Assembly (NCBI GenBank): GCA_964588525.1
Contig: CAZPQC010000002.1
Location: 9,721-73,720 of the forward strand
Direction of reading: 5' to 3'
From: an uncultured Spirochaetaceae bacterium
GTDB taxonomy: Bacteria > Spirochaetota > Spirochaetia > SZUA-6 > DRHE01
Length of the DNA stretch: 64,000 nt
Positions within the stretch are counted from its first letter, which is position 1. Each line of letters begins with the position of its first letter. Shown piece by piece: positions 6,225 to 44,940 of this stretch. Position numbers and translations under genes: made by a program. The notes under the pieces were generated by a model. The model ran no database searches. It was not told the origin of the DNA and saw only the letters and a program-made list of their open reading frames with translations.

Positions 6225-6577
6225 AGCCCGTCCTCCGCCTGGCCGGAGTTGTTGCCACTGCCTGTGCCGTCTTTGCTGGAGTTCCGTTCGATAGAGCGGG
6301 AAAAATCAGCAGCCCGCTTGAGCGCTTCACTGTCCTCCGGACCCGGAGGACCGTACAGAGCCGGGGAGGGCACGATGTGAAGCGGCAGGGGAAGGTTGAG
6401 GGAAACAGCCCCGCGGGGACAGTCGACCACGCAGGCACCGCAGTACCAGCACTCCTGCGGGTAGGCGATTGCGGGAACCTGTTTTTGCTTTTTATCGAAG
6501 ATAAATACATCCTGAGGGCAGATGTTGTAGCATATGCCGCAGTAATTGCACAGGTCCTTGTCGATCACCGGGGGCAT
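6221..6577 (-). CDS. 4Fe-4S dicluster ferredoxin, AprB-like
   Basis: Two cluster motifs are present: CNYCGICYNICP and CWYCGACVVDCP. The gene overlaps the downstream flavoprotein gene by 4 nt. Confidence 0.85.
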   Translation of the reverse strand: MPPVIDKDLCNYCGICYNICPQDVFIFDKKQKQVPAIAYPQECWYCGACVVDCPRGAVSLNLPLPLHIVPSPALYGPPGPEDSEALKRAADFSRSIERNSSKDGTGSGNNSGQAEDGL

Positions 6578-6578
6578 T

Positions 6579-8250: not shown

Positions 8251-8314
8251 GAAAGCTTCAGAACAATATATCAAATAATGAGAAATTGGGTTAGCAATTT
8301 GGTAAACAATAAAA

Positions 8315-8344
8315 TTGACACCTGACACCGCGCGCGGTTATAAT
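8315..8344 (+). promoter_or_regulatory. Near-consensus sigma70-type promoter for the ABC/MttB operon
   Basis: TTGACA (8315-8320), an 18-nt spacer, then TATAAT (8339-8344). An AGGAGG SD at about 8375 precedes the ATG at 8387. Confidence 0.5.
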
Positions 8345-8386
8345 GCAATTTCATACAGAAATCGTAATAAAATAGGAGGTTATAGG

Positions 8387-10054: not shown

Positions 10055-10178
10055 GCTGCGAGTGCTTCCAGGAAACAGACCCGTAGACAGTCGCACAGAC
10101 AGATGACTCAAGGGAGTGCTTTGGTGGGGAACCAGGGTGCCCTCTACTGTTTTCACGTTTTCAAACCGGTCTTGAACA

Positions 10179-11477: not shown

Positions 11478-12459
11478 GCCGCGACTGCGGGCCGAGCCGA
11501 AGGTTACCGGACGACTGCTGCCGCGGCAGGGGCAACAGCGGCTGAAGCAGCAGGAACAGCGGCTCAGGCAGCATCAAAAGCGCCGGAAACTTCGAGGGCT
11601 GGCGTCGATCCATCCGGTATTCGCATCCCGGACGGCCATGGTCGGCATATTCATCGTCCTTTTCTGGGTGATCGTTGCTCTGTTCGCGCCGCTGCTCACC
11701 CCCTACACCCCAACCGAGCAGGACTGGCAGTTCGTGAACGAAGGGCCCACCAGGAAACATCCTCTGGGCACCGATGACCTGGGCAGGGACCTGTGGGCCA
11801 GGTTGATCTACGGCGCCCGGGTCGTGCTGGTTGCCCTGCCGATCTCGGAGAGCTTTTCTCTCCCCGGAGGCACGGTCATCTGGGGCGTATTGGCCGCCGT
11901 GGTGATCGGCACCTTGCTGGGTTTGCTCGGCGGCTACAGGGGCGGCTGGCTCGATGAGATCATCATGCGGATCCTGGACGCCATGATATCCATCCCCCTG
12001 ATCCTCCTCTACCTCCTGATCCTCTCCTCTATCGGCGCCTCGGCTGTGAACGTGGTCATCGCCATTGCGGTGGTGGGAGTACCCGGTATGGCTCGCCTGG
12101 TTCGCAGCCTGACCCTGGACATCCGGACCCGGGAGTATGTGCGGGCCGCCGAAACCCGTGGGGAGAGCGGCCTCTACATCATGGTGGTGGAGATCCTGCC
12201 GAACGCCGTGGGGCCGGTGATCGTTGATGCCATGCTGCGCGTCGGCTATGCCATCTTCGCCATGGGTACCCTGGGCTTTCTGGGGCTGGGTCTGCCCCCT
12301 CCCTCCCCCGACTGGGGCAGCATGATCGCCAAGGGCAGGGAGTTCATCTTCATCAGCCCCTGGGCGGCGCTCTGGCCCTCCATCGCCATAGGCACGCTGG
12401 TGGTAGGGCTGAACCTGTTCGCCGACGGGCTGCGGGAAGAGACGATGCGTTACCGTTAA
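11470..12459 (+). CDS. ABC transporter permease (DppC/OppC-like)
   Basis: The LFAPLLTPYTP N-terminal motif and a multi-TM core are present. The start overlaps the previous gene by 8 nt. Confidence 0.9.
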   Translation: MPEPRLRAEPKVTGRLLPRQGQQRLKQQEQRLRQHQKRRKLRGLASIHPVFASRTAMVGIFIVLFWVIVALFAPLLTPYTPTEQDWQFVNEGPTRKHPLGTDDLGRDLWARLIYGARVVLVALPISESFSLPGGTVIWGVLAAVVIGTLLGLLGGYRGGWLDEIIMRILDAMISIPLILLYLLILSSIGASAVNVVIAIAVVGVPGMARLVRSLTLDIRTREYVRAAETRGESGLYIMVVEILPNAVGPVIVDAMLRVGYAIFAMGTLGFLGLGLPPPSPDWGSMIAKGREFIFISPWAALWPSIAIGTLVVGLNLFADGLREETMRYR

Positions 12460-16456: not shown

Positions 16457-16889
16457 TGCCAGCATCGCGGTTTGGGCCGTTGTCCCTGCTGCGGCCCCCT
16501 TCGATACGCTGAAGTTGATCGGTGGGTGGCGCCGGAGGGGAGTTCGGCTGCTCTCGCCGAGCCTCTTTCTCGCTGAGAGCACATCAGCCATCCGAAAACT
16601 CGTTCACGGCGGAATACTATCGGTAGAGGAAGGATCAACGGCTCTGTCCGATCTGTTGGATCTGGATGTCGATATCATCCAGGAGACCGGTGAGCATTGC
16701 AGGGCAGCGTTCCGTTGGGCAGAACGGCTCGAACAATCCAAGGCCTACGACGGATTCTACCTGGCTGTTGCGGAGTATGCCGATTCCGAGCTTTGGACAG
16801 CGGATGAGAGACTGGTTCACTCCGCTCGTGATAAGAACATCGGCTGGGTTCATTGGGCCGGTGAGGCTGGAACTGCAATTACAGAGTGA
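16416..16889 (+). CDS. vapC: PIN-domain toxin (VapC-like)
   Basis: The acidic PIN residues appear to be present (VIDAS, LAEST, YDGFYLAV, WTADERL). The ATG at 16416 overlaps the antitoxin gene. Confidence 0.8.
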   Translation: MEASSEQVASLVIDASIAVWAVVPAAAPFDTLKLIGGWRRRGVRLLSPSLFLAESTSAIRKLVHGGILSVEEGSTALSDLLDLDVDIIQETGEHCRAAFRWAERLEQSKAYDGFYLAVAEYADSELWTADERLVHSARDKNIGWVHWAGEAGTAITE

Positions 16890-17665
16890 AATCTGACAAG
16901 AAAAATACGAAAATACAAGCAAACCCCCAGGGGGAGATGTCCTTTATCGATCATCTCAGGGAGTTGCGCAGACGGATCATCGTCTCGATGATCGCGATCC
17001 TCTGCGCGGCCATCGTCTCCTACATCTTCTTCGACTATATAGTGGCCTTTTTGTTCCAACCCTTCCGGGAGATCGAAGCCCTGTCGGTCCGAGACGAGAT
17101 CCTGTTCATCAACACGATTTTCGAGGGATTCCTGGTACGCCTGAAAGTGGCGATTCTGGCCGGGATCGTGTTCTCCCTTCCTGTTCACGTGTTCAACATC
17201 ATCAGGTTCGTACTTCCGGGCCTTACGGCGAAAGAAAAAAAGATCATTCTCATCTCTCTGATCGTCAGCTTCTGCCTGATCGTGTTCAGTTTCTACTACG
17301 GCTATTTCAACGTCATCCCTATTTCGATAGGATTCCTCAGCAGCTCCGGGTTCATCCCCGAGGACGTGGGATTGCTGCTCAACTACGGGAAAAACATCTT
17401 CGTGATCTTCCAGTTTCTCATGATCACGGTCGTTGTATTCCAGCTGCCGATCATCCTGGAGATCCTGATGATCATGAACGTCTTGAGCCGCAAGGCGCTG
17501 CTGAAGGCGAGCCGCTTCATCGTGGTCGGCATCTTTGTACTGGCGGCGATCGTCACGCCGCCGGATTTCGTGTCCCAGATCAGCATAGCCCTGCCCCTGG
17601 TCGGGCTGTTCTTCCTCACCATTCTGATCGCCAGGATCTTCCACTTCGGGAAGGGACAGCCGTAG
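16886..17665 (+). CDS. tatC: Twin-arginine translocase subunit TatC
   Basis: The MSFIDHLRELRRR motif and six predicted TM segments are present. The GTG at 16886 overlaps the vapC stop codon (GTGA). An alternative ATG lies at 16937. Confidence 0.9.
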   Translation: MKSDKKNTKIQANPQGEMSFIDHLRELRRRIIVSMIAILCAAIVSYIFFDYIVAFLFQPFREIEALSVRDEILFINTIFEGFLVRLKVAILAGIVFSLPVHVFNIIRFVLPGLTAKEKKIILISLIVSFCLIVFSFYYGYFNVIPISIGFLSSSGFIPEDVGLLLNYGKNIFVIFQFLMITVVVFQLPIILEILMIMNVLSRKALLKASRFIVVGIFVLAAIVTPPDFVSQISIALPLVGLFFLTILIARIFHFGKGQP

Positions 17666-17686
17666 GGCGGGAGGGGAGAAGAGTCG

Positions 17687-17929
17687 GTGTTTGGTCTTGG
17701 TTTTGTCGAAATCCTGGTTATTTTCCTGGTAGCCATCATCTTCATAAATCCGAAGGATCTTCCCAAGGTCTTCCGCCGTTTGGGCCGCCTAGTGCGGCAG
17801 CTGCGGGACATCCGGGACAGCTCCGTGCAGTACATGAGGAGAATAGAAAGAGAGATCGAAGAGGAGGATCATAAGAATCAGACTCCCGAGGAAGAAACGC
17901 AGAGCGGGGCGGAAGAAGAGCAACCCTAG
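17687..17929 (+). CDS. tatB: TatA/TatB-family protein, TatB-like
   Basis: The N-terminal FGLGFVEILVIFLVAIIFINPKDLPK segment is followed by an amphipathic, acidic tail. Confidence 0.8.
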   Translation: MFGLGFVEILVIFLVAIIFINPKDLPKVFRRLGRLVRQLRDIRDSSVQYMRRIEREIEEEDHKNQTPEEETQSGAEEEQP

Positions 17930-17978
17930 TTCCCTGCAGCCGCTTATAGTGTATATTTGTATGTAGAGAGAGGTAACT

Positions 17979-18170
17979 ATGATCGGAACAACGGAGATCG
18001 TCATCATCGTCGGTGTGGTCCTGGTTCTTTTCGGCGCCACGGCGATTCCCAAATTCGCCCGCTCACTGGGCAGGGCGAAGAAAGAGTTCGAGCAGGGAAT
18101 CAAAGAGGGACAGGTCGACGAGGAAGACAAGAAGAAAAGAGAACCGGCGGATAAGAAAGAGGAAAGCTAG
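17979..18170 (+). CDS. tatA: Twin-arginine translocase subunit TatA/E
   Basis: The MIGTTEIVIIVGVVLVLFGATAIPKFARSLG segment is present, with a GAGAGAGG SD upstream. Confidence 0.85.
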   Translation: MIGTTEIVIIVGVVLVLFGATAIPKFARSLGRAKKEFEQGIKEGQVDEEDKKKREPADKKEES

Positions 18171-18258
18171 ATCCTGAGGGCGTTCATGCCCTCCATACCA
18201 CCGGAGCGCGTGGGTGCCCTACCGTATGCATAGGTTTTTGGTTTCAAGGCCACCTTGA

Positions 18259-18493
18259 TCATCCCGGTGAGTGACTGCCGGGGCTGTCTGCAAACGCGGT
18301 CAAAGATATTTCTATATGGGCAGTGCAAAGACGTGCTTCCGGAAATATCATCCGGTTCGATAATAGGTAATCGGCGTTGAAGAGCCGGTAGAACCACACC
18401 GTATCGGGAGCTTCGGTGGCTGCGCCGGCGGAAACACATCCGGACAAAGTGATCAACAAACAGATGGCAAGGGGAAGAGTTGGTCTTGATCAT
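18259..18493 (-). pseudogene. Possible small lipoprotein gene disrupted by a 1-nt frameshift in a homopolymer
   Basis: The ATG at 18493 encodes MIKTNSS. After a C4 run (plus-strand G4 at 18471-18474) the adjacent frame reads LAICLLITLSGC (a lipobox) and stays open to 18259. Confidence 0.3.
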
Positions 18494-18520
18494 TTTTGAA
18501 TCAAAGGCTGGGAAGCTATA

Positions 18521-18718
18521 GTGGGAAAGGGGGAAATTTCGCCCTGTAAATGGTACTACTGTTGTCCAATAAAAAAATTTACCGAGCAAGGTAAATTGGA
18601 GAGATACTGGATAGAAAACTACTGCTTGGTCAGCAACAAGAATTGTATTCGTTATCAAATGGAGGAAAAAGGCGAATATCATCCGGACAATATGTTACCA
18701 AACGGTGAGCTCTGTTGA
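18521..18718 (+). CDS. Small cysteine-rich protein (CKWYYCCPIKKF...YHPDNMLPNG)
   Basis: 65 aa with 7 Cys. It resembles a small conserved family I recall from anaerobes (CP.K.F...C.RY..EE.G..HPDNMLP.G). It lies in a patch that looks low in GC. Confidence 0.55.
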   Translation: MGKGEISPCKWYYCCPIKKFTEQGKLERYWIENYCLVSNKNCIRYQMEEKGEYHPDNMLPNGELC

Positions 18719-18770
18719 TTAAAAGATGCCGCTGGAATACTGAAGAAATATCGGTGTTCAGGCCTGCCGG

Positions 18771-19184
18771 CTAGGCGTACTTCCGGTTGATCAGCCAGAG
18801 AGAGAGCAGCACGATCAGATCCGCGGCCAGCCTGTTGATCCAGACCACCAGATCCGGTTCGGCGAAGTTGCTGGCAAAGAAGCTCAAGATGATCTGGATG
18901 ATCCACAGGATGGAGATCACCAGCGTTGCCCCGTACAGCAACCGGCTCTGAACGGCGAAAAAAACCCCGGCAAAAACGATCACCCCGGCCACGATTTCGA
19001 CGATGGCCACGACCAGGTTCAGGGGATCGTAGGCCCGGCCGAATAGTTTGTTCATCCCCCGGCCCAATCGGGCTAGATCCGTGTCGTAGTGGATGACGGC
19101 GATCAGTCCCAGGGTGATGAGAAAAGCCGCCACTACGATCTGCAGGATCGTTACCAGGTCCATGGATGCTCTGCTTCTTGCCAT
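18771..19184 (-). CDS. Hypothetical integral membrane protein (4 predicted TM segments)
   Basis: 137 aa with hydrophobic segments. An AGGAGGA SD lies upstream of the ATG at 19184. Confidence 0.7.
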   Translation of the reverse strand: MARSRASMDLVTILQIVVAAFLITLGLIAVIHYDTDLARLGRGMNKLFGRAYDPLNLVVAIVEIVAGVIVFAGVFFAVQSRLLYGATLVISILWIIQIILSFFASNFAEPDLVVWINRLAADLIVLLSLWLINRKYA

Positions 19185-19285: not shown

Positions 19286-20209
19286 CTATGCCCTTCCCAG
19301 CACCATGGCCAGCAGGGCCATGCGCAGGTACATCCCGTTGTGGGCCTGGCGGAAGTAGGCTGCGTTGGGTAGATCATCCACGTCGGTGGTGATCTCGTCA
19401 ACCCTGGGCAGGGGGTGCATGATCACGATGCCCTTCTTGCCCTTCTGAACCAGGTCCCGGTTCAGCACGTAGCTGCCCTTCAGGCGCTCGTATTCGGCCG
19501 GGTCGTCGAAACGCTCCCGCTGGATGCGGGTCATGTAGAGGATGTCCGACTGCAGGGCTTCCCTGATGTCCCCGGTTTCCTTGACCGGGATCCCCATCTT
19601 CTTCACGTCCGCGGTGAGGTCACCCGGCATGGCCAGATCTTTCGGAGAGCAGTATATGTATGAAGGATTGAAGGGGGCCAGGGCGTAGGAAAGGGAGTGC
19701 ACGGTCCGGCCGTATTTGAGATCTCCGACCATGCCGACCGTGAGATTCTCCAGGGTGCCCTTCTCCTTCTGGATGGTGTACAGATCCAGCAGGGCCTGGG
19801 TGGGGTGCTGACCGGATCCATCGCCGCCGTTCAAGACCGGGATCTCCACTGCATCGGCTATGATCTTGGCCCCGCCGGTCTGGGGCTGGCGCACCACGAT
19901 GCAGTCCACGTACCCCTCTACAGTGCGGGCCATGTCGGCCAGGCTCTCTCCCTTGGCGGCGGAGGAACTCTTGGCGTCGGCCACGGTGATCGATCGTGCC
20001 CCCAAACGACGCACTGCGGTCTCGAAGGAGAGGCGGGTGCGGGTGGAGGGCTCCAGGAAAATCACCGCCACCACTTTGTCGGCGAGCAGGTCGGATACGT
20101 GCTCCTTCCGTACCAGCTGCTCCATCTTGGCGGTTACCTTCATGATCTCCAGGAGATCGCTCTTCGAAAGATCCTCGGTGCTGAGAATGTCGCGTCCTTC
20201 AAAGCTCAT
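19286..20209 (-). CDS. pyrB: Aspartate carbamoyltransferase catalytic subunit
   Basis: Motifs STRTR, HPTQ, GDLKYGRTVHS, TRIQRERF and HPLPR are present. The start overlaps the upstream 2Fe-2S subunit stop codon (ATGA). Confidence 0.9.
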   Translation of the reverse strand: MSFEGRDILSTEDLSKSDLLEIMKVTAKMEQLVRKEHVSDLLADKVVAVIFLEPSTRTRLSFETAVRRLGARSITVADAKSSSAAKGESLADMARTVEGYVDCIVVRQPQTGGAKIIADAVEIPVLNGGDGSGQHPTQALLDLYTIQKEKGTLENLTVGMVGDLKYGRTVHSLSYALAPFNPSYIYCSPKDLAMPGDLTADVKKMGIPVKETGDIREALQSDILYMTRIQRERFDDPAEYERLKGSYVLNRDLVQKGKKGIVIMHPLPRVDEITTDVDDLPNAAYFRQAHNGMYLRMALLAMVLGRA

Positions 20210-20694
20210 TTAGTTTTCCTTCCTTGATCCTTGATTGCCACACTAGCCGTTCTTATAGCACGAACGATGTTCGTGTAGCCAGTGCAGCGGCAGAGATTAC
20301 CGCGGATGGCCTGCTTGATTTCCTCATTGGTGGGATCGGGTTTGACGTCCAGCAGGGCCTTGGCGCTCAGTATCATGCCGGGGGTGCAGTAGCCGCATTG
20401 CACGGCCCCCTCGTCGATGAAGGCCTGCTGCAGGGGATCGAGGGATCCGTTTTTCTCGAGCCCTTCGATGGTCGTGATCCGCTTTCCGTCGGCCGTGAAG
20501 GCCAGGGTCTGGCAGGATAGAATCGCCCGTCCTTCGAGCAGAACCGTGCAGGCGCCGCACTCCCCGATGCCGCAGCCGTACTTGGTGCCCATCAACCCCA
20601 ATCGATCCCGCAGCACGTTGAGCAGGATCTCGTTGGGCTTCACCTCCAGGGGGTAGTCCTTGCCGTTCACCTTGAGCGTAATCGCGATCTTCAT
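20206..20694 (-). CDS. (2Fe-2S)-binding small subunit of an XDH/CODH-family molybdoenzyme
   Basis: Motifs CGIGECGACTV, QCGYCTPG and CRCTGY are present. The ATG at 20694 overlaps the FAD-subunit stop codon. Confidence 0.9.
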   Translation of the reverse strand: MKIAITLKVNGKDYPLEVKPNEILLNVLRDRLGLMGTKYGCGIGECGACTVLLEGRAILSCQTLAFTADGKRITTIEGLEKNGSLDPLQQAFIDEGAVQCGYCTPGMILSAKALLDVKPDPTNEEIKQAIRGNLCRCTGYTNIVRAIRTASVAIKDQGRKTK

Positions 20695-21587
20695 TTTTTG
20701 CCTCTCGATCTTTTCCATGCTTCCTGCAGTGCTTCCCGAACAAGCAGGGAGGCAATCTGTCTGCGGTATGCGGCGGTCGAGCGGACATCGTCGATCGGCG
20801 CGATATCCTCGGCCACCAGCTCGGAGGCCTGGCGAAGCAGCCGTTCACTGCACTTCTGACCCTCCAGAGCGCTCTCGATGGTCGGCGCCCTGACCGGGGT
20901 CGGGGCCACTGAGCCCAGGGCGATCCGGGCCAGCCGGATACGATCGCCCTCCCGCTCGATGTAGGCGGCACAGTTGATCTTGGCGATGTCCAGGCTGACC
21001 CTGGCCAATCTGCGAAAAGCAGCCCCCGAGTGTTCCGGGGGCAGGGGCAGGGTCATGCTCGCCACCATCTGTCCCTGTTTCAGCACGGTTTTTTTGGGGC
21101 CGCTGAAAAAACCGCCCAGAGGCAACCGATTGCGCTGCGCGGGCGAGGCGTCGTTGGCCCCGCAGATCTCCACTTCCGCGTCCAGGACGAGCAGAATCGG
21201 CGGGGTATCGGCTCCCGGCGAGGCGTTGCAGATGTTTCCCGCCAGGGTGGCCATATTCCGGATTTGGGTTCCCCCGATCACATCGATCGCCTCGCAGAGG
21301 GCGGGAAATCGGGAGACAACCTGGCGGTGGTGTTCGATATCGCCCAGGCGCGCTCCCGCCCCGATGGAGAGGGAGTTGCCCTGGACCGTAACATAATCCA
21401 AATCGGCAATTCCCAGGATGTACACCAAACGGCGGGGTTCCACCGCGTTGGTCTTGATGTTGTTGATCAGATCCGTGCCCCCGGCCAGGACCTGGGCTCC
21501 CTCTTCGTTTAGGGCCTCCAGGGCCTCATCGAGGCTGCGGGGAGTGCTGCATTCGAAATCCAAACTGATGACTCGGGTACTCGACAT
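20691..21587 (-). CDS. FAD-binding medium subunit of an XDH/CODH-family molybdoenzyme
   Basis: It contains LAGGTDLINNIK and NMATLAGNICNASPGADT, with a CO-dehydrogenase flavoprotein-like C-terminal region. Confidence 0.9.
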   Translation of the reverse strand: MSSTRVISLDFECSTPRSLDEALEALNEEGAQVLAGGTDLINNIKTNAVEPRRLVYILGIADLDYVTVQGNSLSIGAGARLGDIEHHRQVVSRFPALCEAIDVIGGTQIRNMATLAGNICNASPGADTPPILLVLDAEVEICGANDASPAQRNRLPLGGFFSGPKKTVLKQGQMVASMTLPLPPEHSGAAFRRLARVSLDIAKINCAAYIEREGDRIRLARIALGSVAPTPVRAPTIESALEGQKCSERLLRQASELVAEDIAPIDDVRSTAAYRRQIASLLVREALQEAWKRSRGKK

Positions 21588-21599
21588 TTTACTTCTCCC

Positions 21600-24017
21600 T
21601 TATCCCCGCTGCGTCACAGCCGGCCGAGGTTCTTCGCCCGATTCGGCGCTACCCGGTTCGCTTTGAGAGCTCTCCCCCTGCCGCCCGCCGAGAGCCCGGA
21701 GGATATCTTCAGGGGTAATCGGCAGCTTGGTGAACCAGATGCCCGTAGCGTTGTGTATGGCCGCGGCCACGGCTGCCGGAACGGGATTCAGAGCCGCCTC
21801 CCCGATGCCCTTGGCTCCCATCGGGCCGGTGGGCTCGTAGGTATGGGCGAAGAATATTTCGAAGGCTTCGGGATCGGGAAGATCCACGGCTCCGAGCATC
21901 TTGTAGTCGGTCAGCAGTCCCCGGTTGGTCAGCAGCCCCGTTTTCGGATCGTAGTCGGTATCCTCCAAAAGAGCCATGCCGGCCCCCCGATAGAATCCGC
22001 CCTGAAGCTGGCCTTTGGCCAGGGCCGGATTGATCACGGTTCCGGCATCGCTTCCGGCAACCACCCGCAGGATCCGCACCATGCCGGTGTCCATGTTCAC
22101 CTCCACCTCGACGAAGAATGTCGTGTAGGCGGGGGGGCAGTTGACCTTACGCACGCTCCGCGCCGAGATGGCCGTGCCCCAGTCATTGTTCATGGCCGTT
22201 TCGGCCACCTCGCGGATGGTGATGTTCTTCTCCGGCATTCCCTCAACGTATATGAGCCCCTCGTTTTTTGTTTCGTCGAGACGGGTTTTCAGGGAGTCCA
22301 CCGGTGCGTTGAGGATCCGGGAGGCGTACTCCAGGAGTATTCGTTTCGTATCCCGGGCTACATCCAGCACGGCCCCGGCACCGCAGTACACGCCCCGCGT
22401 CGCGTGGGTACAGACGTCGTAGCCGGTAGAACGGGTATCCGCCGGGGAGATGCCCACCTTGTCGAAGGGTACGCCGAACTCCTCGGCGACCAGCTTGGCC
22501 GCCGCGTCCAGGGTTCCGCCGCCGTGATCCATCAGGGCGGTAAGCACGTCGATGGAGCCGTCCTCGTTCACCTTGACCTGAACCGTGGTGAAGTCCTTTA
22601 CCTCCCCGGGTACCGGGGCTCCCGTACCGGAGGTGTGGAACCCCCGGGCCATTCCGATGCCCCGCCGCAGGCGTCCTTCCCTCATCGCGGGATCGAGGCG
22701 GTGATCCCAGCCGATCTTCTCCGCCCCGGTGTACAAAAGCTCTCTCACGCCGTCGGAGTGGATCAGGGATCGGACCGTTGGCCCCTGGCCCCAGAAGATC
22801 TCCCCCAGGCCTACGTAGTTCTTTAGACGCAGCTCGATCGGGTCCAGATCGAGCCGCTCCGCCAGCATGCTCATGGTGGTCTCCACGCCGAAGGTCACCT
22901 GGGGCGCTCCGTAGCCCTGCATGGCGCAGGTCGGAGCCTTGTTGGTGTACACCGCCACCCCCTGGTAGCGCAGGTTTGGGAGGCGATACAGGGAGTGCCA
23001 CCAGCCGGCCAGCACGCCCAGGAAGGCCAATGCCTGGACATGGTGGCTGCCGATATCCACCCAGGCCTTCATCTCTCCGGCGGTGAGAGTGCCGTCCTTC
23101 TTGGCCCCGATCTTGAGGGTGTAGCGGGTCGGGTAGCGGCAGTGGTCGTACAGATCCTCCTCCCGGCTCTGCAGGATCTTGACCGGTTTTCCCGCCTTCA
23201 GGGCTAGAGCTACTGTGATGAGGATAACCGGATTGGTATGGATACCGCTGCCGAAGTGCCCGCCTCCGGTAAGGCGGATCACATTGACTTTGTTCAGGGA
23301 AATATCGAACAACTTTCCGAGGAGGATACGGGTATTGTGCAGGGCCTGGGTGGAGGGCCAGACCGTGATACCGCCGTCGGGTTCGGGACGGCAGGTGCAG
23401 CCGCGGGGTTCCATCTGGCAGTGGTAGACCCGAGGGGTGATGAACTCGTTCTCCACGATCACATCCGCCTCGGCGAAACCTTTTTCCACATCCCCCTCGG
23501 TCACCTCCCGGGTGCAGGCGATGTTGTTCTGGATCGTGATCTCCCTGTCCTGGAGGTAGACCTTGTCGTGGATCAGGTTGTCCTCCGCGGCCATTGCCTG
23601 TTCTATGCCGAAGTAGGCGGGCAGAATCTCCCACTGTACCCGGACCGCTTCGGCGGCTTTCTCGGCCAGCTCCTCGGTAACTGCTGCCACCGCGGCGAAG
23701 GGGTCGCCCACCTGGCGTACGTGATCGCTCAAGATCCGCCAGTCCTTGTAGGTCGACCGGGGCACCGAGACTTGGCGCACGTTGAACGGTTGCTTCGGGG
23801 TGTCATCGGGCCCCAGAACGGCGGCGCCCAACTTTTCGGCATCAGAGAAATCGATACTCTTGATGCGGGCGTGGGGATGGGGGCTTCTCAGGATCTTGCC
23901 GTACAGCATGCCCGGCAGCACCACGTCTGAAGGGTAGATCTCCCGGCCTGTGACCCGGGCGCGGCCCTCCTTGCGGGGAAAGTCCTTTCCCAGAAATCTG
24001 TATTTTTGATCACTCAT
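21600..24017 (-). CDS. Molybdopterin-binding large subunit of an XDH/aldehyde-oxidase-family enzyme
   Basis: About 805 aa from the ATG at 24017, with a GGAGGA SD upstream. The N-terminus (GKDFPRKEGRARVTG) is typical of the family. The longer ORF start at 24320 was rejected. Confidence 0.9.
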   Translation of the reverse strand: MSDQKYRFLGKDFPRKEGRARVTGREIYPSDVVLPGMLYGKILRSPHPHARIKSIDFSDAEKLGAAVLGPDDTPKQPFNVRQVSVPRSTYKDWRILSDHVRQVGDPFAAVAAVTEELAEKAAEAVRVQWEILPAYFGIEQAMAAEDNLIHDKVYLQDREITIQNNIACTREVTEGDVEKGFAEADVIVENEFITPRVYHCQMEPRGCTCRPEPDGGITVWPSTQALHNTRILLGKLFDISLNKVNVIRLTGGGHFGSGIHTNPVILITVALALKAGKPVKILQSREEDLYDHCRYPTRYTLKIGAKKDGTLTAGEMKAWVDIGSHHVQALAFLGVLAGWWHSLYRLPNLRYQGVAVYTNKAPTCAMQGYGAPQVTFGVETTMSMLAERLDLDPIELRLKNYVGLGEIFWGQGPTVRSLIHSDGVRELLYTGAEKIGWDHRLDPAMREGRLRRGIGMARGFHTSGTGAPVPGEVKDFTTVQVKVNEDGSIDVLTALMDHGGGTLDAAAKLVAEEFGVPFDKVGISPADTRSTGYDVCTHATRGVYCGAGAVLDVARDTKRILLEYASRILNAPVDSLKTRLDETKNEGLIYVEGMPEKNITIREVAETAMNNDWGTAISARSVRKVNCPPAYTTFFVEVEVNMDTGMVRILRVVAGSDAGTVINPALAKGQLQGGFYRGAGMALLEDTDYDPKTGLLTNRGLLTDYKMLGAVDLPDPEAFEIFFAHTYEPTGPMGAKGIGEAALNPVPAAVAAAIHNATGIWFTKLPITPEDILRALGGRQGESSQSEPGSAESGEEPRPAVTQRG

Positions 24018-24127
24018 GGGTGTGGATCCTCCAGGGGATGGGTTACGCCTTTCATTCTGCCCGGGGAAGACGAAGCTGTCAATATCATAATCAAGAATCA
24101 AATTCCATATAATGAGAACATCATGTT

Positions 24128-24156
24128 TGACATAAACTCCGCGGAACGGTAGTATG
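24128..24156 (+). promoter_or_regulatory. Sigma70-type promoter in the AT-rich divergent region between the two XDH-family operons
   Basis: TTGACA (24128-24133), a 17-nt spacer, then TAGTAT (24151-24156). It lies upstream of an AGGAGGA SD and the GTG at 24220. Confidence 0.45.
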
Positions 24157-24219
24157 AAACACTTTTCAGGTTCAAACACCACAGCTAGATTACGAAGAAT
24201 ATTTGTCAGGAGGACAGAC

Positions 24220-25077
24220 GTGGGTAAGTTTACCTTTTTCCGACCCACCGCGTTGGCGGAGCTTCTCGACTTCAAAGCCAGAGAGGGCGGCAAGGCGAGG
24301 ATTCTGGATGGAGGGTCCAATGTCCTGGTCTACATCAACGAAGGATCGATTGCCGGGGGGGCCCTGGTGGATGTGAAATCTCTGGAGGCGATCAAGGGGA
24401 TCGAGATCCGGGATGGACTGCTGGAGATCGGAGCCGGGGAGCTGATCGCCGATATCATGAACTCAGACCTGATCAGGAAGAAGATGCCCTTCCTGCGGGA
24501 GGTCCTGCAGAAGTTCGCCAATCCCCTGGTGCGAAACATGGCCACCCTGGCCGGGAATATCGCCGATTCCTCCCCCATCGGCGACACGATTCCACCGCTG
24601 CTGGTTCTGGAGGCTGAAGTGGTCGCAGCCAGCGCCAGGGAACAGCGGGTGATCCCCCTGGAGGAGTTTTTCACCGCTCCGGGGAAAAACGTGCTCAAAG
24701 ACGATGAAGTCATTCTCAAGGTGCGCTTCCCCCTTCCGGAGAAGGGCAGGGGCGGGCACATCAAGCTGGGACTGCGGCGGGGCACCTCCTGCTCAGTGGC
24801 CTCGGTAGCCGTCTGGTTGGTGGCGGACAAGAACAAAGTCCGGGATATCCGCATCGCTCTGGGCGGTGTTGCTCCCACCCCCATTCGAGCCCGCAAGACT
24901 GAAAGCCCCTTCAAGGGACAGAGCCTGGATTGGGACAAGATAACGGAGCTTTCCGAGACCGTGATGGAGGAGGTGCGTCCGATCACCGACGTTCGGGGCA
25001 GCGCCGAATATCGGAAGCAGGTCTCTGCCGGCCTGTTGGCCAAGGCGGTTCGCCAGGCCCTGGGAATGGAGGAGTGA
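24220..25077 (+). CDS. FAD-binding medium subunit of a second XDH-family enzyme
   Basis: I chose the GTG at 24220 because an AGGAGGA SD lies upstream. The NMATLAGNIADSSPIGDT motif is present. Confidence 0.85.
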   Translation: MGKFTFFRPTALAELLDFKAREGGKARILDGGSNVLVYINEGSIAGGALVDVKSLEAIKGIEIRDGLLEIGAGELIADIMNSDLIRKKMPFLREVLQKFANPLVRNMATLAGNIADSSPIGDTIPPLLVLEAEVVAASAREQRVIPLEEFFTAPGKNVLKDDEVILKVRFPLPEKGRGGHIKLGLRRGTSCSVASVAVWLVADKNKVRDIRIALGGVAPTPIRARKTESPFKGQSLDWDKITELSETVMEEVRPITDVRGSAEYRKQVSAGLLAKAVRQALGMEE

Positions 25078-25078
25078 G

Positions 25079-25567
25079 ATGAGCGAGCGCAACGACAACG
25101 GGTTGTACGATATCTGCATTACGGTCAACGACCGGGAGATCCGCGGTAAGATCAAGGCGGAAACCTCCCTGCTCGATTTTTTACGGGAGAACAACTTCAC
25201 CGAGGTCAAGCGAGGATGCGACAAGGGCGACTGCGGAGCCTGTACCGTGATCAAGGACGGCCGGGCCATCCTCTCCTGCATCACCCTGGCCCTTCAAGCC
25301 GACGGCAGCAGGGTCTATACGGTGAAATCCCTGGGCAGCTGGGACAAGATGCACCCCCTGCAGCAGGCCTTCGTGGACTACGAGGCGCTGCAGTGCGGCT
25401 TCTGTACCCCGGGCATGCTGATGAGCGCCAAGGCGCTCCTGGATTCGAACCCCAAGCCCACCCGTGAGGAGATCAGGGAGGCCATCTCGGGGAATCTCTG
25501 CCGCTGCACGGGTTATCAGAAGATCGTGGACGCCATAGAGGCGGTTGCCAAAGGAGAGTACCGATGA
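25079..25567 (+). CDS. (2Fe-2S)-binding small subunit of the second XDH-family enzyme
   Basis: Motifs CDKGDCGACTV, QCGFCTPG and CRCTGY are present. Confidence 0.9.
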   Translation: MSERNDNGLYDICITVNDREIRGKIKAETSLLDFLRENNFTEVKRGCDKGDCGACTVIKDGRAILSCITLALQADGSRVYTVKSLGSWDKMHPLQQAFVDYEALQCGFCTPGMLMSAKALLDSNPKPTREEIREAISGNLCRCTGYQKIVDAIEAVAKGEYR

Positions 25568-27861
25568 AAAACAAGTACAGCGTAATCGGAACCCGCATTG
25601 CCGGCCTGGATGAGAAGGACAAGGTCCTGGGAAACGTTGTTTTTGCCGAGGACTTCACCCTGCCCGGATTGATATACGGGAAGGTTTTTCGCTCCACCAA
25701 GGCTTCCGCCCGCATCAAAGCCCTCGACGTTTCCAAGGCACGTAGCCTGCCCGGTGTAGTCTGCGTGCTGACCGCCGAGGACGTACCCAACAACGAGTCT
25801 GTAAAGAACGTGGTCGGGCAGACCACGGAGGTGGGGCTTCTGGAGGCCAAACACCAGGTGCTGGCCCGGCAGCGGGTCCGCTACTGGGGTGAGGCCATCG
25901 CCCTGGTGGCCGCGGAGAGCCTGGACGTCGCCCGGGATGCTCTAAAGCTGATCGAGGTGGAGTACGAGGAGCTTCCAGCCGTGTTCGATCCCCTGGAGGC
26001 CATGAAGCCGGATGCCCCCAAGATCCACGGCAACAACAACGTGATCGCCTCCTGGAAGCTGCGCAAAGGCGATGTGGAGGAGGGATTTGCCCGGGCGGAG
26101 GTGATCGTGGAGAACACCTACCGCACCCCCCGGCAGGAGCACGCCCACATCGAGCCGGAATCCGGGGTGGCCTGGGTGGACGATATGGGGGTGATCAATG
26201 TGCGCTACGCCGCTCAGGTCATCGAACACTACCGGGACATCGCCACGGTCCTGGGTGTGCCGGAGAGCCGGGTGCGGGTCATCGGTACGCTGATCGGAGG
26301 CGGCTTCGGCGGCAAGGAAGACGTGACCGTCGAGGTGTTTCTGGCCCTGATGGCCTGGAAGACCGGCCGACCGGTGAAGCTCACCTTTACGCGGGAGGAG
26401 ATGGGTTATGCCCGACACAAGCGCCATCCCTATGTCTTGAAGTACAAGACCGGTGCCACCAAAGACGGCAAACTCGTGGCCCTGGAAGCCCGGATCGTCT
26501 CCGATGCCGGGGCCTACGTGTACCTGAGCCCCTGGGTCCTGATCTATTCCACGGTGCACTCCACCGGACCGTACTTGATCCCCAATGTCAAGGTGGATGC
26601 CGACTCGGTCCTGACGAACAACATCATGACCAGCGCCTTCCGCGGCTTTGGGGGGATGCAGGTGGTGGCTGCCTACGAAGCCCAGATGGACGATCTGGCC
26701 GCAGAACTCGGCATGGACCCCATCGAACTGCGGGCCAGGAACTTCCTCAAGAAGGGGGATGTCACCGCCAGCTATCAGGAGATCACCTCCGAGGTCTGGC
26801 TGGAGAAGTGCGCCCGGGCTGCTGTGGATGCCCTGGGACCGAAAAGCAAGGGCGGTAAGACCAGGAAGGTCGGGCGGGGCCTGGCCTGCGCCTGGCAGTC
26901 CTACGGACGCATGACCTACCTCCACGACACCTCCAACTGCTGGGTGAACCTGGAGATGGACGGCAGCGCCGTGGTGCGAACCGGCATCCCGGATCTGGGG
27001 GGAGGGCAGCGCGAATCGGTGCGGGCCATCGCCGCGGAGGTGCTGGGCCTCAATGTCGACGAGATCCACGTGATCTCTACGGACTCTCAGGTTACCCCCC
27101 TGTCCGGAACCGTGACCGCCACCCGGGCCCTGTATATGTCGGGCAACGCCGCCAAGCTGGCCTCGGAAAACGTGAAGCGGATCATCACGGACAAGGCGGC
27201 GGAGATCCTGGGCGTAGCCGCGGACAAGCTGGATCTCAAAAACCACAGGGTGGTCGTGGCCGACGATCCCAAGACGAGCATTCCCCTGGTGGATGCGATC
27301 AAACAGTGCCACTTCGAGGGCAAGATCCCCCAGAGCCTGGCCACCTTCCGGGCTCCCTTCACCGAGCCGATCAGCTCGGACGTGATCAAGGATCCGGTGT
27401 TCCCGGACTTCACCTTCGGCGCCCAGGCCGCGGAGGTGGAGGTGGACGTCGAAACCGGGGAGGTGAAGGTACTGAAGTGGGCCACGGCCTACGACATCGG
27501 CCAGGCGATCAACGTCAACCGGGTGGAGGGCCAGATGGAGGGCGGAGTCGCTCAGGGGCTGGGCTTCGGCCTGATGGAGGACTACCTCGAGGTCGACGGC
27601 GTGCCCTGGACCTGGAACTTCCACGACTACATCATCCCGACCTCCAAGGACGTGCCGGACATCAAGTCGATCGTGCTGGAGTCCGGAACGGGCAAGGGAC
27701 CCTTCGGCGCCAAGGGGATCGGGGAGCCGGCCATTTCTGCGGCCGGACCGGCGGCGGCCAATGCGGTCAAGGATGCGATCGGCGTGCGCATCACCCATCT
27801 GCCGATCACGGCGGAACGGATCTTTTTCGCCCTTCGCGACAAGAGTGACCGACAGGTTTGA
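25564..27861 (+). CDS. Molybdopterin-binding large subunit of the second XDH-family enzyme
   Basis: 765 aa. It overlaps the small subunit gene by 4 nt and has family-typical N-terminal and C-terminal (GAKGIGEP) regions. Confidence 0.9.
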   Translation: MKNKYSVIGTRIAGLDEKDKVLGNVVFAEDFTLPGLIYGKVFRSTKASARIKALDVSKARSLPGVVCVLTAEDVPNNESVKNVVGQTTEVGLLEAKHQVLARQRVRYWGEAIALVAAESLDVARDALKLIEVEYEELPAVFDPLEAMKPDAPKIHGNNNVIASWKLRKGDVEEGFARAEVIVENTYRTPRQEHAHIEPESGVAWVDDMGVINVRYAAQVIEHYRDIATVLGVPESRVRVIGTLIGGGFGGKEDVTVEVFLALMAWKTGRPVKLTFTREEMGYARHKRHPYVLKYKTGATKDGKLVALEARIVSDAGAYVYLSPWVLIYSTVHSTGPYLIPNVKVDADSVLTNNIMTSAFRGFGGMQVVAAYEAQMDDLAAELGMDPIELRARNFLKKGDVTASYQEITSEVWLEKCARAAVDALGPKSKGGKTRKVGRGLACAWQSYGRMTYLHDTSNCWVNLEMDGSAVVRTGIPDLGGGQRESVRAIAAEVLGLNVDEIHVISTDSQVTPLSGTVTATRALYMSGNAAKLASENVKRIITDKAAEILGVAADKLDLKNHRVVVADDPKTSIPLVDAIKQCHFEGKIPQSLATFRAPFTEPISSDVIKDPVFPDFTFGAQAAEVEVDVETGEVKVLKWATAYDIGQAINVNRVEGQMEGGVAQGLGFGLMEDYLEVDGVPWTWNFHDYIIPTSKDVPDIKSIVLESGTGKGPFGAKGIGEPAISAAGPAAANAVKDAIGVRITHLPITAERIFFALRDKSDRQV

Positions 27862-30450: not shown

Positions 30451-31242
30451 CTAGCGGGGCGGTTTCGAAGCCCAGTAGTCGAGAATGTGCTGCGGGTAGG
30501 TGGCACCGATCCGGCTGGAGATGCTGGCAGCCGCCTCCACGAACAGCGGCGCATATTCGTCGAGCTGATCCGCGTCCAGATCGATCGAGGTGCCCACCAG
30601 GGCGATGGCGCCGATGACCCGGTTGTCTTTGCCGAAAAGCGGCACGGCCAAAGCCGTGATGCCCCGGTGGAACTCCTGATTGTTGTAGGATACCCCGGTA
30701 GCGTAGATCGAGGCGAGGTTTTGGCGCAGCTTTTTCACGTCCGTGATCGTTTCCGGGGTATAGGTCTCCAGCTCCGGGTTGCGCAAGATAGTCTCCCGCT
30801 CTTTTTCCGGCAGGAAGGCCAGCACCGCTTTCCCCGAGGCTGCGCTGTGCAGCGGCATGATCTCTCCCCTGCCCACCGACACCCGGGTGTTGATGTGCCC
30901 GCAGATCTCCATGGCGATGCAGTGCCGTCCGTTGTAGAGGGCGAAGAAGGTCGTCTCTTCGGTTTGAACGTGCAGCTCTTCGAGATAGGGCAGGCAGATG
31001 GCAGCCAGATCCATGCCCTCGACCACTGACTCGGCCAGGCGCAGGTGGGCAAAGCCGAGGAAGTAGCGGGAATCCCGCTTGTTCTGATACACGTAGTCGT
31101 GCTTCTTGAGCGCGGCGAGGATGCGGTAGCAGGTGGACGGCGGGATGTTCAGAGCCTGGCTGATCTCCTTGTTGGTCAGTCCGCTCTTGTAGTGCTTGCG
31201 CAGCAGCTCGAAGATGCTGTGGATCTTGTCTATCGACGGCAT
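30451..31242 (-). CDS. IclR-family transcriptional regulator
   Basis: An N-terminal HTH (LTNKEISQALNIPPSTCYRILAAL) and an IclR effector domain are present. Confidence 0.9.
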   Translation of the reverse strand: MPSIDKIHSIFELLRKHYKSGLTNKEISQALNIPPSTCYRILAALKKHDYVYQNKRDSRYFLGFAHLRLAESVVEGMDLAAICLPYLEELHVQTEETTFFALYNGRHCIAMEICGHINTRVSVGRGEIMPLHSAASGKAVLAFLPEKERETILRNPELETYTPETITDVKKLRQNLASIYATGVSYNNQEFHRGITALAVPLFGKDNRVIGAIALVGTSIDLDADQLDEYAPLFVEAAASISSRIGATYPQHILDYWASKPPR

Positions 31243-36383: not shown

Positions 36384-37337
36384 TCACGGCACGATGTGGG
36401 TACCGGTTTTGCCCTCGACCGCCTCCAAAGCCTTGTCCAGAGAGGTGATGATCGTTTCCTTTCCGCTCCACTTAACGAAGCGGATCGCCGCCTCGATCTT
36501 CGGTCCCATGGATCCAGCCAGAAAGTGTCCCTCCGCCGAATAGCTTTCGGCCTCCTTTACGGTGATTCGATCCAGAACCTTCTGGTCCGGTTTGTTGAAG
36601 TTCAGGAACACCTTCTCCACATCGGTGAGGATGAGGAATTTGTCCGCCTGTACCGCCTGAGCCAGCTTGAAGCCGGCCCGGTCTTTATCGATCACCGCCT
36701 CCACACCGCTGTAGCTGCCGTCGCCGTTCTTCTTCACCGGAATTCCTCCACCTCCGGAGGCGATGACGATCACGCCGCTGTTCAGCAGATCGTTGATCGA
36801 TTCGGACTCCACGATATCCACCGGCTCCGGCGACGGGACCACCCGACGCCAGCTCTTCTCGATGCCCGGCTTCACCTCTTTGACGATGTAGCTCTTCTCC
36901 TCGGCCAGGTGGAGGGCCTCCTCCTTGGTGTAGAACGGCCCGACGGGCTTGCTGGGATCCTGAAAGTCCGGGTCCTGGTCGCTGACCTCCACCTGGGTGA
37001 CCACGGTGCAGATCGCCGCGTTCACGCCCTCCCGCATCAGATGGAAAGCGAGTCTGTTCTGCATCATCCAACCGATCTGGCCCTGGGTCATGGCCCCGCA
37101 TACGGCCAGGGTCTGCGCCGGCACCAGGGCGTCGCATTCCTCCTGCTGGATCAGCAGGGCTCCGGCCTGGGGACCGTTCCCGTGGGTCACGACCAGGCGA
37201 TAGCCGGCCTTGGCGATCTTGGCGATTTGTTTCGTCGTTACGTCGACGTTGTGAAACTGCTCTTCCGTGGTGCCCCGTTCATCCGCCTGCTTGATGGCGT
37301 TTCCGCCCAGGGCCACAACCAACACCTCTCTGCTCAT
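36384..37337 (-). CDS. arcC: Carbamate kinase
   Basis: 317 aa with VVALGGNAI and amino-acid-kinase fold motifs. Confidence 0.9.
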   Translation of the reverse strand: MSREVLVVALGGNAIKQADERGTTEEQFHNVDVTTKQIAKIAKAGYRLVVTHGNGPQAGALLIQQEECDALVPAQTLAVCGAMTQGQIGWMMQNRLAFHLMREGVNAAICTVVTQVEVSDQDPDFQDPSKPVGPFYTKEEALHLAEEKSYIVKEVKPGIEKSWRRVVPSPEPVDIVESESINDLLNSGVIVIASGGGGIPVKKNGDGSYSGVEAVIDKDRAGFKLAQAVQADKFLILTDVEKVFLNFNKPDQKVLDRITVKEAESYSAEGHFLAGSMGPKIEAAIRFVKWSGKETIITSLDKALEAVEGKTGTHIVP

Positions 37338-44016: not shown

Positions 44017-44808
44017 CTATTCGTTCAGCGTGGAACGCATGTGGGTCGCCTCCGCACCGTGCACCACCGCCACGACCTCCGCCGCGATCGAGATCGCGAT
44101 CTCCGCCGGGGTGTCGCCGCCGATCTTCAGCCCTACCGGGGCGTACAGATAGTCGGGCGCCTGCAGACCGGCCGACTTGAGTTTATCCAGGGTGGTGCGG
44201 ATCTTGGGACGTGAGCCGATCAAGCCGACATAGCGATACTCGTCTTTAGCCTGCAGCACCTGCTTCAAGACCTGGTAATCGTGCAGATGACCGTGGGTGG
44301 CGATGAAGCAGAACTCGCAGGCTCGCAGGATTTCCGCGGCGCTTCCGATGTCCTCGTAATCCCCGGTAATGATCGTTCGCTCTTCGGTTTCACTCAGCAG
44401 GTCCCGAACCTCCGGCCGGGAGTCGAACAAGGTCACTCGAAAACCGAGGGATTCCAGAATCGGGGTCAGAGCCCTGCCGATGTGTCCGCCTCCGAACAGC
44501 ATGAAGCCCCGCCGACCCTGCATGTACTCGTACAGCAGGGTAACCTGGCCGCCGCATTTCATTTTGAGCTTTTCGAGATTGTAGGCTTCCAGGCGGTTTC
44601 CCCGGGTTCTCAGCACCTCCTTGCCGTCCGCCACCGCCCGATGTTCGATCGCTCCGCCTCCTACGGTTCCGAACAGCTCGCCCCGGTCGGTCAGGATCAT
44701 CTTGAATCCTTCTTTGCCGGGGGTTCCGCTACCCGCTTTTACCACGGTTACCAGGACTATATTTGTTCCCTGTTCGATCAGGCTGCTGCAAGTTTTTAGA
44801 ATATCCAT
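44017..44808 (-). CDS. XdhC/CoxI-family molybdoenzyme maturation protein
   Basis: An XdhC N-terminal domain and a Rossmann-like FGGGHIGRAL motif are present. I chose the ATG at 44808. Confidence 0.85.
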   Translation of the reverse strand: MDILKTCSSLIEQGTNIVLVTVVKAGSGTPGKEGFKMILTDRGELFGTVGGGAIEHRAVADGKEVLRTRGNRLEAYNLEKLKMKCGGQVTLLYEYMQGRRGFMLFGGGHIGRALTPILESLGFRVTLFDSRPEVRDLLSETEERTIITGDYEDIGSAAEILRACEFCFIATHGHLHDYQVLKQVLQAKDEYRYVGLIGSRPKIRTTLDKLKSAGLQAPDYLYAPVGLKIGGDTPAEIAISIAAEVVAVVHGAEATHMRSTLNE

Positions 44809-44940
44809 AGGGCTACTGTAAATCCTGGCCTGTAAATGCTCAAGGGCTCGAGGGTGCTCAAGAGCGGCGTTCCCGGTTGCGGCAAGATTGGTCCCGGGGC
44901 GCGGATTTATGTACATTTACAGGTGAAAGAGGAGTAGCGG

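Follow-up and report, generated by a model that had tools for sequence, protein, structure and literature searches.

In the arginine deiminase (ArcB/ArcC) and agmatine deiminase (putrescine carbamoyltransferase) pathways, a ureido compound and phosphate give carbamoyl phosphate, from which carbamate kinase forms ATP, and the same carbamoyl phosphate-to-ATP scheme is reported for oxalurate cleavage in allantoin fermentation (PMC11326118). We propose this scheme for a locus in a 64,000-nt stretch (the window) of contig CAZPQC010000002.1 (GCA_964588525.1), from a 90.7%-complete metagenome-assembled genome (MAG) of an uncultured marine Spirochaetaceae bacterium (G000), in which the aspartate carbamoyltransferase (ATCase) gene, pyrB, is the last enzyme gene of a molybdenum hydroxylase operon. 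Textbooks treat ATCase as a biosynthetic enzyme under allosteric control, and N-carbamoyl-L-aspartate is the first committed intermediate of pyrimidine synthesis. In the reductive uric-acid (2,8-dioxopurine) cluster of Escherichia coli and gut anaerobes, genes for a xanthine-oxidase-family enzyme, cyclic amidohydrolases, a carbamoyltransferase, and carbamate kinase reportedly serve together in an anaerobic, ATP-yielding heterocycle route. The window differs from that cluster in having no YgeW-type knotted transferase; it has a true ATCase instead, and its two hydroxylases, each with all three subunits, belong to other subfamilies. The original prediction, made from the letters of the window, had likened the locus to the E. 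coli xdh/ygeW/ygeY/yqeA region. The analogy proved weak and was dropped as a description of the locus: the M20 gene lies in an MttB island and the XdhC gene is 16 kb away, both among unrelated genes, and the two hydroxylase large subunits fall under the xanthine dehydrogenase (XDH) cut-offs.

Window proteins were assigned to families using Pfam and NCBIfam models with curated equivalog cut-offs, and solved relatives were taken from PDB structures. Two divergent xanthine-oxidase-family gene sets were identified. On the minus strand, in the order L-FAD-FeS, hydroxylase 1 consists of the large molybdopterin subunit L_m (21600..24017; PF01315, PF02738, and PF20256), the flavin adenine dinucleotide (FAD) subunit FAD_m (20691..21587; PF00941 and PF03450), and the 2Fe-2S subunit FeS_m (20206..20718; PF01799 and PF00111), followed on the same strand by pyrB (19286..20209; TIGR00670), encoding the ATCase catalytic chain. 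On the plus strand, in the order FAD-FeS-L, hydroxylase 2 is encoded by FAD_p (24220..25077; PF00941 and PF03450), which has a GTG start after AGGAGG, FeS_p (25079..25567; PF01799 and PF00111), and the large subunit gene L_p (25564..27861; Pfam). The head-to-head arrangement and permuted gene order first read from the open reading frames (ORFs) were borne out by these models. A Shine-Dalgarno-like sequence, AAGGGAG, lies ahead of the FAD_m start codon (ATG 21587). The likely start of FeS_m is ATG 20694 (alternative start, 20718), and ATGA overlaps join FAD_m to FeS_m (20694-20691) and FeS_m to pyrB (20209-20206); both, already noted in the original prediction, can be seen in the sequence. Neither a promoter-like nor a terminator-like site was found at the FeS_m-pyrB junction. 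Together with the ATGA overlap, this junction suggests that pyrB shares a transcript with the hydroxylase 1 genes and that the two are coupled in translation. On the plus strand, FeS_p and L_p share a four-base overlap, an ATGA at 25564-25567 being implied by the coordinates and the ATG start.

The AT-rich control region serving both strands (24018..24219), first read as about 200 nt, spans 202 nt with 43.6% GC (core, 36%) versus 62% in the flanking operons. It contains two back-to-back promoter-like sites, TTGACA-17-CAGAAT (minus) and TTGACA-17-TAGTAT (plus), each matching at 10/12 positions. The comparison genomes were mostly MAGs; one of them, G007, is a closed 4.84-Mb chromosome of a Spirochaetaceae MAG from the same genus as G000. 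Its locus is identical in arrangement, and the layout is therefore not an assembly artifact.

The pyrB product is a canonical ATCase. It passed TIGR00670 (361.3 bits; cut-off, 236.95) and NF002032 (314 versus 263 bits), and its best solved relatives were ATCases from M. jannaschii and P. abyssi, with the E. coli catalytic chain next. When its motifs were compared with those of ornithine carbamoyltransferase (OTCase)-type and other paralogues, the carbamoyl phosphate site (STRTR, HPTQ, and HPLPR) and the aspartate site (the Arg in GDLKYGRTVHS and the Arg and Gln in TRIQRERF) were both complete. On the YgeW-type models TIGR03316 and NF005538, it failed with 34 to 40 bits against cut-offs of 453 to 500, and so the earlier assignment as an aspartate-specific enzyme and not a YgeW stood. 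A homologue search with pyrB returned only close relatives (at least 74% identity). In a whole-genome search of G000, at its 90.7% completeness, pyrB was the sole ATCase above the cut-off, no second pyrB was found, and the remaining carbamoyltransferase matches were OTCase-like or more distant. PyrI (PF01948), which is typical of the E. coli/archaeal ATCase type without defining the family, was likewise found nowhere in that genome. In the closed G007 chromosome, pyrB is again the sole ATCase, and pyrI is again missing. The single carbamate kinase gene of G000 (36384..37337, minus strand) scored 408.6 bits on TIGR00746 (cut-off, 358.25) and was present in the window where the original prediction had placed it.

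We read the two divergent operons as the form taken in spirochaetes by a widespread six-gene module that encodes two different molybdenum hydroxylases. In the proposed pathway, these enzymes would carry out two hydroxylations of a small N-heterocyclic carboxylic acid, the favored reaction being imidazole-4-acetate to 5-carboxymethylhydantoin, and a hydantoinase/dihydroorotase-like amidohydrolase would open the cyclic ureide to N-carbamoyl-L-aspartate. ATCase and phosphate would then convert N-carbamoyl-L-aspartate to aspartate and carbamoyl phosphate, from which carbamate kinase would produce ATP, CO2, and NH3. Oxidation of histidine or histamine is expected to end in imidazole-4-acetate as a dead-end product. 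Because two hydroxylations and one hydrolytic opening must give N-carbamoyl-aspartate, the substrate would require five carbons and an N-C-N unit, and the new stereocenter of 5-carboxymethylhydantoin would explain a racemase gene found near some copies of the module. We infer the substrate, the ring-opening step in G000, and the direction of ATCase from gene content. The full reading, in which a heterocyclic acid (most plausibly imidazole-4-acetate) is converted through a ureide to carbamoyl-aspartate and then, by reversed ATCase and carbamate kinase, to ATP, is given a probability of about 45%. A broader version, in which an oxygen-independent imidazole-4-acetate pathway extends across many anaerobic bacterial and archaeal phyla, runs the sole canonical ATCase backwards for ATP, and is a main carbamoyl phosphate source of a spirochaete family that has lost carbamoyl phosphate synthetase (CPSase), is less likely than not. 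A search of one library of papers found no link between ATCase and catabolism, no genes for anaerobic imidazole-acetate or carboxymethylhydantoin breakdown, and no characterized member of the module enzymes. A foraminifer paper naming carbamoyl-aspartate and carbamate kinase was set aside as a precedent, since its subject was not ATCase reversal.

The coupling of pyrB to the hydroxylase, whose absence from all relatives had been considered in the original prediction, is present in two Spirochaetales families and in other phyla. The order IclR-L_m-FAD-FeS-pyrB is kept in both families, down to 73% pyrB identity, and in several relatives the genes lie on a single strand as L_m-FAD-FeS-pyrB-FAD-FeS-L_p, placing pyrB between the two enzymes. 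The IclR-family regulator gene of the window (30451..31242, minus strand; identified by Pfam, NCBIfam, and synteny) is 59 to 93% identical to the IclR gene that immediately precedes L_m in the majority of related genomes and is a displaced orthologue of it. In two genomes of the same genus, G002 and G004, neither the module (L_m and the neighboring subunit genes) nor an ATCase was found. In one of three loci inspected (L130), a 77%-identical pyrB has no adjoining hydroxylase; this contig begins 6.4 kb upstream. In some spirochaete loci, genes for a Pyr_redox_2 flavoprotein, a poly-ferredoxin, and a bis-molybdopterin guanine dinucleotide oxidoreductase stand between hydroxylase 1 and pyrB (L131 5637-9458; L068; also G000:C97 and C2 upstream of the window), a set that may form an electron-disposal unit.

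Searches for the CPSase large subunit gave no hit in G000, the closed G007 chromosome, 16 of 18 family genomes, or a further family of the order, f8. Every other family of the order has it, and f8, the exception, also carries the module. Carbamate kinase is present in nearly all genomes of the family, and in six of them, including G000, it shares a contig with the cluster at a distance of 10 to 17 kb. As no CPSase was found in the family, a reversible ATCase/carbamate kinase pair would also link the pathway to pyrimidine and arginine synthesis. Thermococcus kodakarensis, which lacks CPSase, obtains its pyrimidine carbamoyl phosphate from OTCase reversal, with carbamate kinase being dispensable (PMC13260591). 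This reversed transferase is a precedent for the carbamoyl phosphate supply proposed here.

When species-representative genomes were scanned with an alignment of L_m, 80 loci were identified. The six hydroxylase genes form a module, usually in the order L_m-FAD-FeS-FAD-FeS-L_p, that occurs in Desulfobacterota, Acidobacteria, Thermoleophilia, Chloroflexota, Bacillota, Atribacteria, Aminicenantes, and Planctomycetota and, among archaea, in Hadarchaeota, haloarchaea, and a Fervidicoccaceae archaeon. Outside the spirochaetes, the module usually comes with a LIV-type ABC importer and with a regulator of the XRE-cupin or IclR type; other recurrent neighbors were genes for cofactor maturation (XdhC, MobA-like, and YqeC proteins), AroM, a cyclic amidohydrolase of ∼450 amino acids, pyrB, carbamate kinase, and sometimes pyrE. 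A canonical ATCase was present in 7 of 47 nonspirochaete loci against 0.165 expected for a single-copy gene in a 4-Mb genome (Poisson, 6e−10, or 3e−5 if only four events are counted), and it was the sole ATCase in all five nonspirochaete module genomes checked (four Desulfobacterota and one archaeon). Four lineages are represented among the linked ATCases, which are polyphyletic (spirochaete, Desulfobacterota/Thermoleophilia, Bacillus-type [Syntrophorhabdus], and archaeal) and occupy different positions in the cluster. The linkage has therefore come about several times, a pattern that speaks for selection and against a single inherited accident, and this pairing in unrelated phyla points to an undescribed, probably ATP-yielding route of N-heterocycle breakdown. 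CPSase was present in three of four tested genomes with a module-linked ATCase, and carbamate kinase adjoins pyrB in L084, L097, and L100, from genomes with CPSase, and is near the cluster in L059 and L071. Among further module-bearing genomes, carbamate kinase was found in 10 of 15 versus 2 of 14 controls. In L084, from a MAG labeled Deltaproteobacteria, the pyrB gene (16575-17501) nests in the spirochaete ATCase clade with 73% identity to that of the window and stands after a hydroxylase module of its own type and carbamate kinase, which indicates horizontal transfer or a binning error. In L100, an OTCase-type gene (11410-12342; HPCQ and HCLP) separates the hydroxylase 1 genes for FAD and FeS, and a hydantoinase-like gene, pyrB, carbamate kinase, and pyrE come after it.

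The neighboring genes bear on the ring-opening chemistry. Cluster amidohydrolases were far closer to hydantoinases and dihydropyrimidinases than to dihydroorotases; one passed TIGR02033, and their best structural matches were D- and L-hydantoinases (PDB 1nfg and 1gkr). They form two clades, one following AroM and the other adjoining pyrB, and in L133, a spirochaete-type contig, the amidohydrolase gene precedes a pyrB of 77% identity and is coupled to it in translation. In seven loci L_p is followed by AroM, and in two loci an aspartate-racemase-family gene comes after AroM; the single match of AroM to a solved structure was a weak one to hydantoin racemase (E value, 0.057). In L063 (G025), genes for a pyridoxal phosphate-dependent decarboxylase, a class III aminotransferase, a Na+ symporter, and a tungsten aldehyde oxidoreductase (L063 548-6908) are divergent from IclR-L_m-FAD_m-FeS_m-pyrB. 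The same decarboxylase family occurs directly upstream of IclR-L_m in L083, and orthologues of the aminotransferase, symporter, and aldehyde:ferredoxin oxidoreductase, 62 to 79% identical, are on two small contigs of G000 (C357 and C97). The L063 set fits a feeder route from amino acid to amine, aldehyde, and heterocyclic acid.

Within the spirochaete family, the orthologue of the pyrB-linked amidohydrolase clade lies beside pyrF-pyrE and pyrD-pyrK fusions, with modA next, and may be a housekeeping dihydroorotase, the ring opener of the pathway, or both. No E. coli-type dihydroorotase was found in these genomes, and pyrC_multi gave no match above the cut-off in the family. The fused genes encode a 477-amino-acid PyrF-PyrE and a ∼590-amino-acid PyrD-PyrK (L136 [G007:C1:2792000-2806000] 4224-10599; L134 [G000:C22] 6744-9949). 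In G007, the hydantoinase-like amidohydrolase gene, followed by modA (molybdate-binding protein), is divergent from them.

This gene content also admits a pyrimidine-ring route, in which the hydroxylases would produce orotate or dihydroorotate from a compound resembling a pyrimidine carboxylate and PyrD, PyrC, and PyrB would then run in reverse, with carbamate kinase making ATP and PyrE salvaging part of the orotate. The route would amount to an ATP-yielding form of the orotate fermentation of Clostridium oroticum. It agrees with L100 and L115, in which the module is clustered with pyrB, pyrE, and a pyrC-like amidohydrolase gene, with L117, where a Bacillus-type pyrB followed by an amidohydrolase gene is clustered with the module, and with the position of the spirochaete orthologue beside pyrF-pyrE and pyrD-pyrK. 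The XDH oxo-heterocycle-binding Glu/Arg pair kept in L_p, and the resemblance of L_p to nicotinate dehydrogenase, point the same way. Orotate nevertheless fits less well than imidazole-4-acetate because its breakdown needs a reductase, and the conserved module has none of the dihydroorotate dehydrogenase type. The amidohydrolases score as hydantoinases rather than dihydroorotases, AroM and the racemase would have no role, and we know of no abundant natural precursor two hydroxylations short of orotate. We consider the pyrimidine-ring route improbable.

Both enzymes have xanthine-oxidase-family architecture, with a hammerhead domain, two molybdenum cofactor-binding domains, and separate FAD and 2x[2Fe-2S] subunits, and both keep the catalytic Glu (GAKGIGE), which is invariant across L_m orthologues. 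In L_m, the pocket loops read GGGHFGSG and AMQGYG (GGGFGGKE and AFRGFG in XDH), so that the equivalents of Glu802 and Arg880 are absent while the catalytic Glu (GIGE) remains. The resulting pocket is distinct and highly conserved among orthologues, which share 75 to 94% identity within Spirochaetales and 52 to 61% in other bacteria and archaea. L_p keeps the XDH-type triad Glu/Arg/Glu (GGGFGGKE, AFRGFG, and GIGE). On the XDH equivalogs (XdhA/PucD/XdhB), the best scores were 465 versus 780 bits for L_m and 552 versus 784 for L_p, the latter on its nearest NCBIfam model, pucD; both large subunits fell under every NCBIfam equivalog cut-off. Scores were also too low on the 4-hydroxybenzoyl-CoA reductase alpha model (430 and 484 versus 995 bits), on the beta model (137 and 117 versus 405), and on the CoxL model for aerobic CO dehydrogenase (230 and 275 versus 991). 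Identities as true XDH, 4-hydroxybenzoyl-CoA reductase, or CO dehydrogenase were rejected on these scores. A biosynthetic role as a substitute for dihydroorotate dehydrogenase was also dismissed, given the good PyrD candidates of G000 and of G031 to G034.

The two enzymes might instead act on purines, nicotinate, or other aromatic heterocycles whose products never reach carbamoyl-aspartate, with the pyrB linkage being regulatory only, for example, to balance purine breakdown against pyrimidine synthesis. XdhA and PucD are the nearest NCBIfam models, L_p has the XDH triad, and an XdhC gene is present in the window, all in keeping with such substrates. Both large subunits are far under the XDH and PucD cut-offs, however, and L_m lacks the Glu802/Arg880 equivalents. 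In none of the 80 loci do urate- or allantoin-degrading genes accompany the module, whereas hydantoinase-like, ATCase, and carbamate kinase genes do. A purely regulatory linkage of this kind appears very improbable.

Several points weigh against catabolic use of this ATCase. The ATCase equilibrium strongly favors synthesis, and a sole ATCase must be presumed biosynthetic until otherwise demonstrated. The search for a second pyrB or pyrI proposed in the original prediction yielded neither; being the only pyrB of the genome, the gene is not a dedicated catabolic copy and must also serve pyrimidine synthesis or be dispensable for it. A sole pyrB was one half of a refuting condition that the original prediction had set for itself, and that half holds. 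Neither a ring-opening amidohydrolase nor AroM is present in the window, and no orthologue of the cluster-type amidohydrolase was found in G000, where the contig ends 241 bp past pyrF-pyrE, exactly at the expected amidohydrolase position. Standing beside pyrF-pyrE and pyrD-pyrK, the family amidohydrolase may itself be a housekeeping dihydroorotase. The module of one family member, G014 (96% complete), lacks pyrB, and the genome as a whole has no ATCase. Carbamate kinase had to be abandoned as a universal companion of the module, as none was seen in 5 of 15 module genomes. The spirochaete relatives are not independent samples, and their pattern amounts to one or two evolutionary events. In Desulfobacterota loci, pyrB occurs together with pyrE and OTCase, which could be an ordinary pyr/arg operon where the module landed. 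The strongest counterargument is that an ATCase without a second copy serves biosynthesis before anything else and that certain clusters resemble pyr/arg operons joined by the module.

A rival explanation is a housekeeping pyrB that came to lie behind the hydroxylases by gene-order drift or by insertion of the module near pyr or arg genes, with no metabolic handover. Carbamoyl phosphate would then come from carbamate kinase or a catabolic OTCase, as in the CPSase-less Thermococcales, for which OTCase reversal feeding pyrimidine synthesis in T. kodakarensis is the precedent (PMC13260591). The canonical sequence and single copy of the ATCase suit this explanation, as do pyrE and OTCase beside pyrB in Desulfobacterota, and the pyrF-pyrE and pyrD-pyrK fusions and dihydroorotase candidate elsewhere imply a de novo pathway that needs pyrB. 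Drift does not readily account for an adjacency that recurs in four unrelated ATCase lineages, at differing positions and far over chance, or for carbamate kinase adjoining pyrB in genomes that own CPSase. Translational coupling would, moreover, place an essential gene under an IclR-type catabolic promoter, and within the genus pyrB is gone exactly from G002 and G004, where L_m and the neighboring subunits were not found. A housekeeping gene with no metabolic link to the hydroxylases is rather unlikely. Of the predicted chain from heterocycle through N-carbamoyl-aspartate and reversed ATCase to carbamate kinase, the recurrent linkage of pyrB, carbamate kinase, and hydantoinase-like genes is what would be predicted.

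Other features of the window lie outside the two operons. A 137-amino-acid hydrophobic protein is encoded ∼100 nt 3′ of pyrB (18771..19184, minus strand), as judged from sequence and translation, with a strong AGGAGG ribosome site. It is kept there in the same and a neighboring genus at 70 to 93% identity, had no Pfam or NCBIfam match, and could serve the operon as a small transporter or an anchor component. Between this gene and tatA lie 600 nt (18171-18770; 48% GC) without a convincing ORF, the longest frames having no Pfam match. The genes tatC, a tatB-like gene, and tatA (16886-18170, plus strand) converge on the pyrB operon; the N-terminal residues examined in L_m and L_p contained no obvious twin-arginine signal. 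An XdhC-type molybdenum cofactor insertion chaperone (44017..44916, minus strand; PF13478 and PF02625) and an M20 protein, a CpsA/DoeB-like amidohydrolase (616-1803), are both present as predicted; XdhC is distant from the hydroxylase cluster, and its link to it is uncertain.

Compared with characterized enzymes, the hydroxylases share Mo/FAD/2x[2Fe-2S] architecture and the catalytic Glu with the Thauera enzyme 1rm6, the best solved relative of L_m (4-hydroxybenzoyl-CoA reductase alpha), with the Eubacterium barkeri nicotinate dehydrogenase 3hrd, which with 1rm6 is a solved relative of L_p, and with quinoline 2-oxidoreductase 1t3q. Similarity is moderate (E values, 1e−85 to 1e−103), and the L_m pocket is unlike any of them. 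Among described pathways, C. oroticum ferments orotate via N-carbamoyl-aspartate to aspartate, interconverts carbamoyl-aspartate with dihydroorotate and 5-carboxymethylhydantoin, and has a carboxymethylhydantoinase (EC 3.5.2.4), for which the literature search found no characterized gene. The proposed pathway resembles this anaerobic route through N-carbamoyl-aspartate to aspartate; the C. oroticum route differs in starting from orotate, in using a hydrolytic ureidosuccinase instead of ATCase and carbamate kinase, and in having no molybdenum hydroxylase. In the aerobic route of Pseudomonas, imidazoleacetate monooxygenase leads through formiminoaspartate to aspartate. The proposed substrate and the end product aspartate would be shared with this pathway, which is oxygen dependent, requires only one hydroxylation, and proceeds with neither ureide formation nor ATP conservation.

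New at this locus are the translational coupling of a canonical ATCase present in a single copy, the conservation of this arrangement across the family, and the concurrent lack of CPSase in the genomes searched, which offers a concrete link between a catabolic module and rewired nucleotide and arginine metabolism. If the proposed pathway is correct, an unmodified single-copy ATCase in a catabolic operon would harvest ATP, a new physiological role, and N-carbamoyl-aspartate would be a fourth substrate class of carbamoyl phosphate-yielding fermentations. The module is common in sediment and subsurface anaerobes, and a substrate assignment would fill a gap in the oxygen-free mineralization of histidine-derived or other imidazole or pyrimidine rings. 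As in the catabolic carbamoyltransferase pathways, the transferase would run against its equilibrium; the difference is that here it would be the canonical single-copy ATCase acting on N-carbamoyl-aspartate, whereas the known pathways use dedicated catabolic paralogues or, in E. coli, the unrelated AllFGH.

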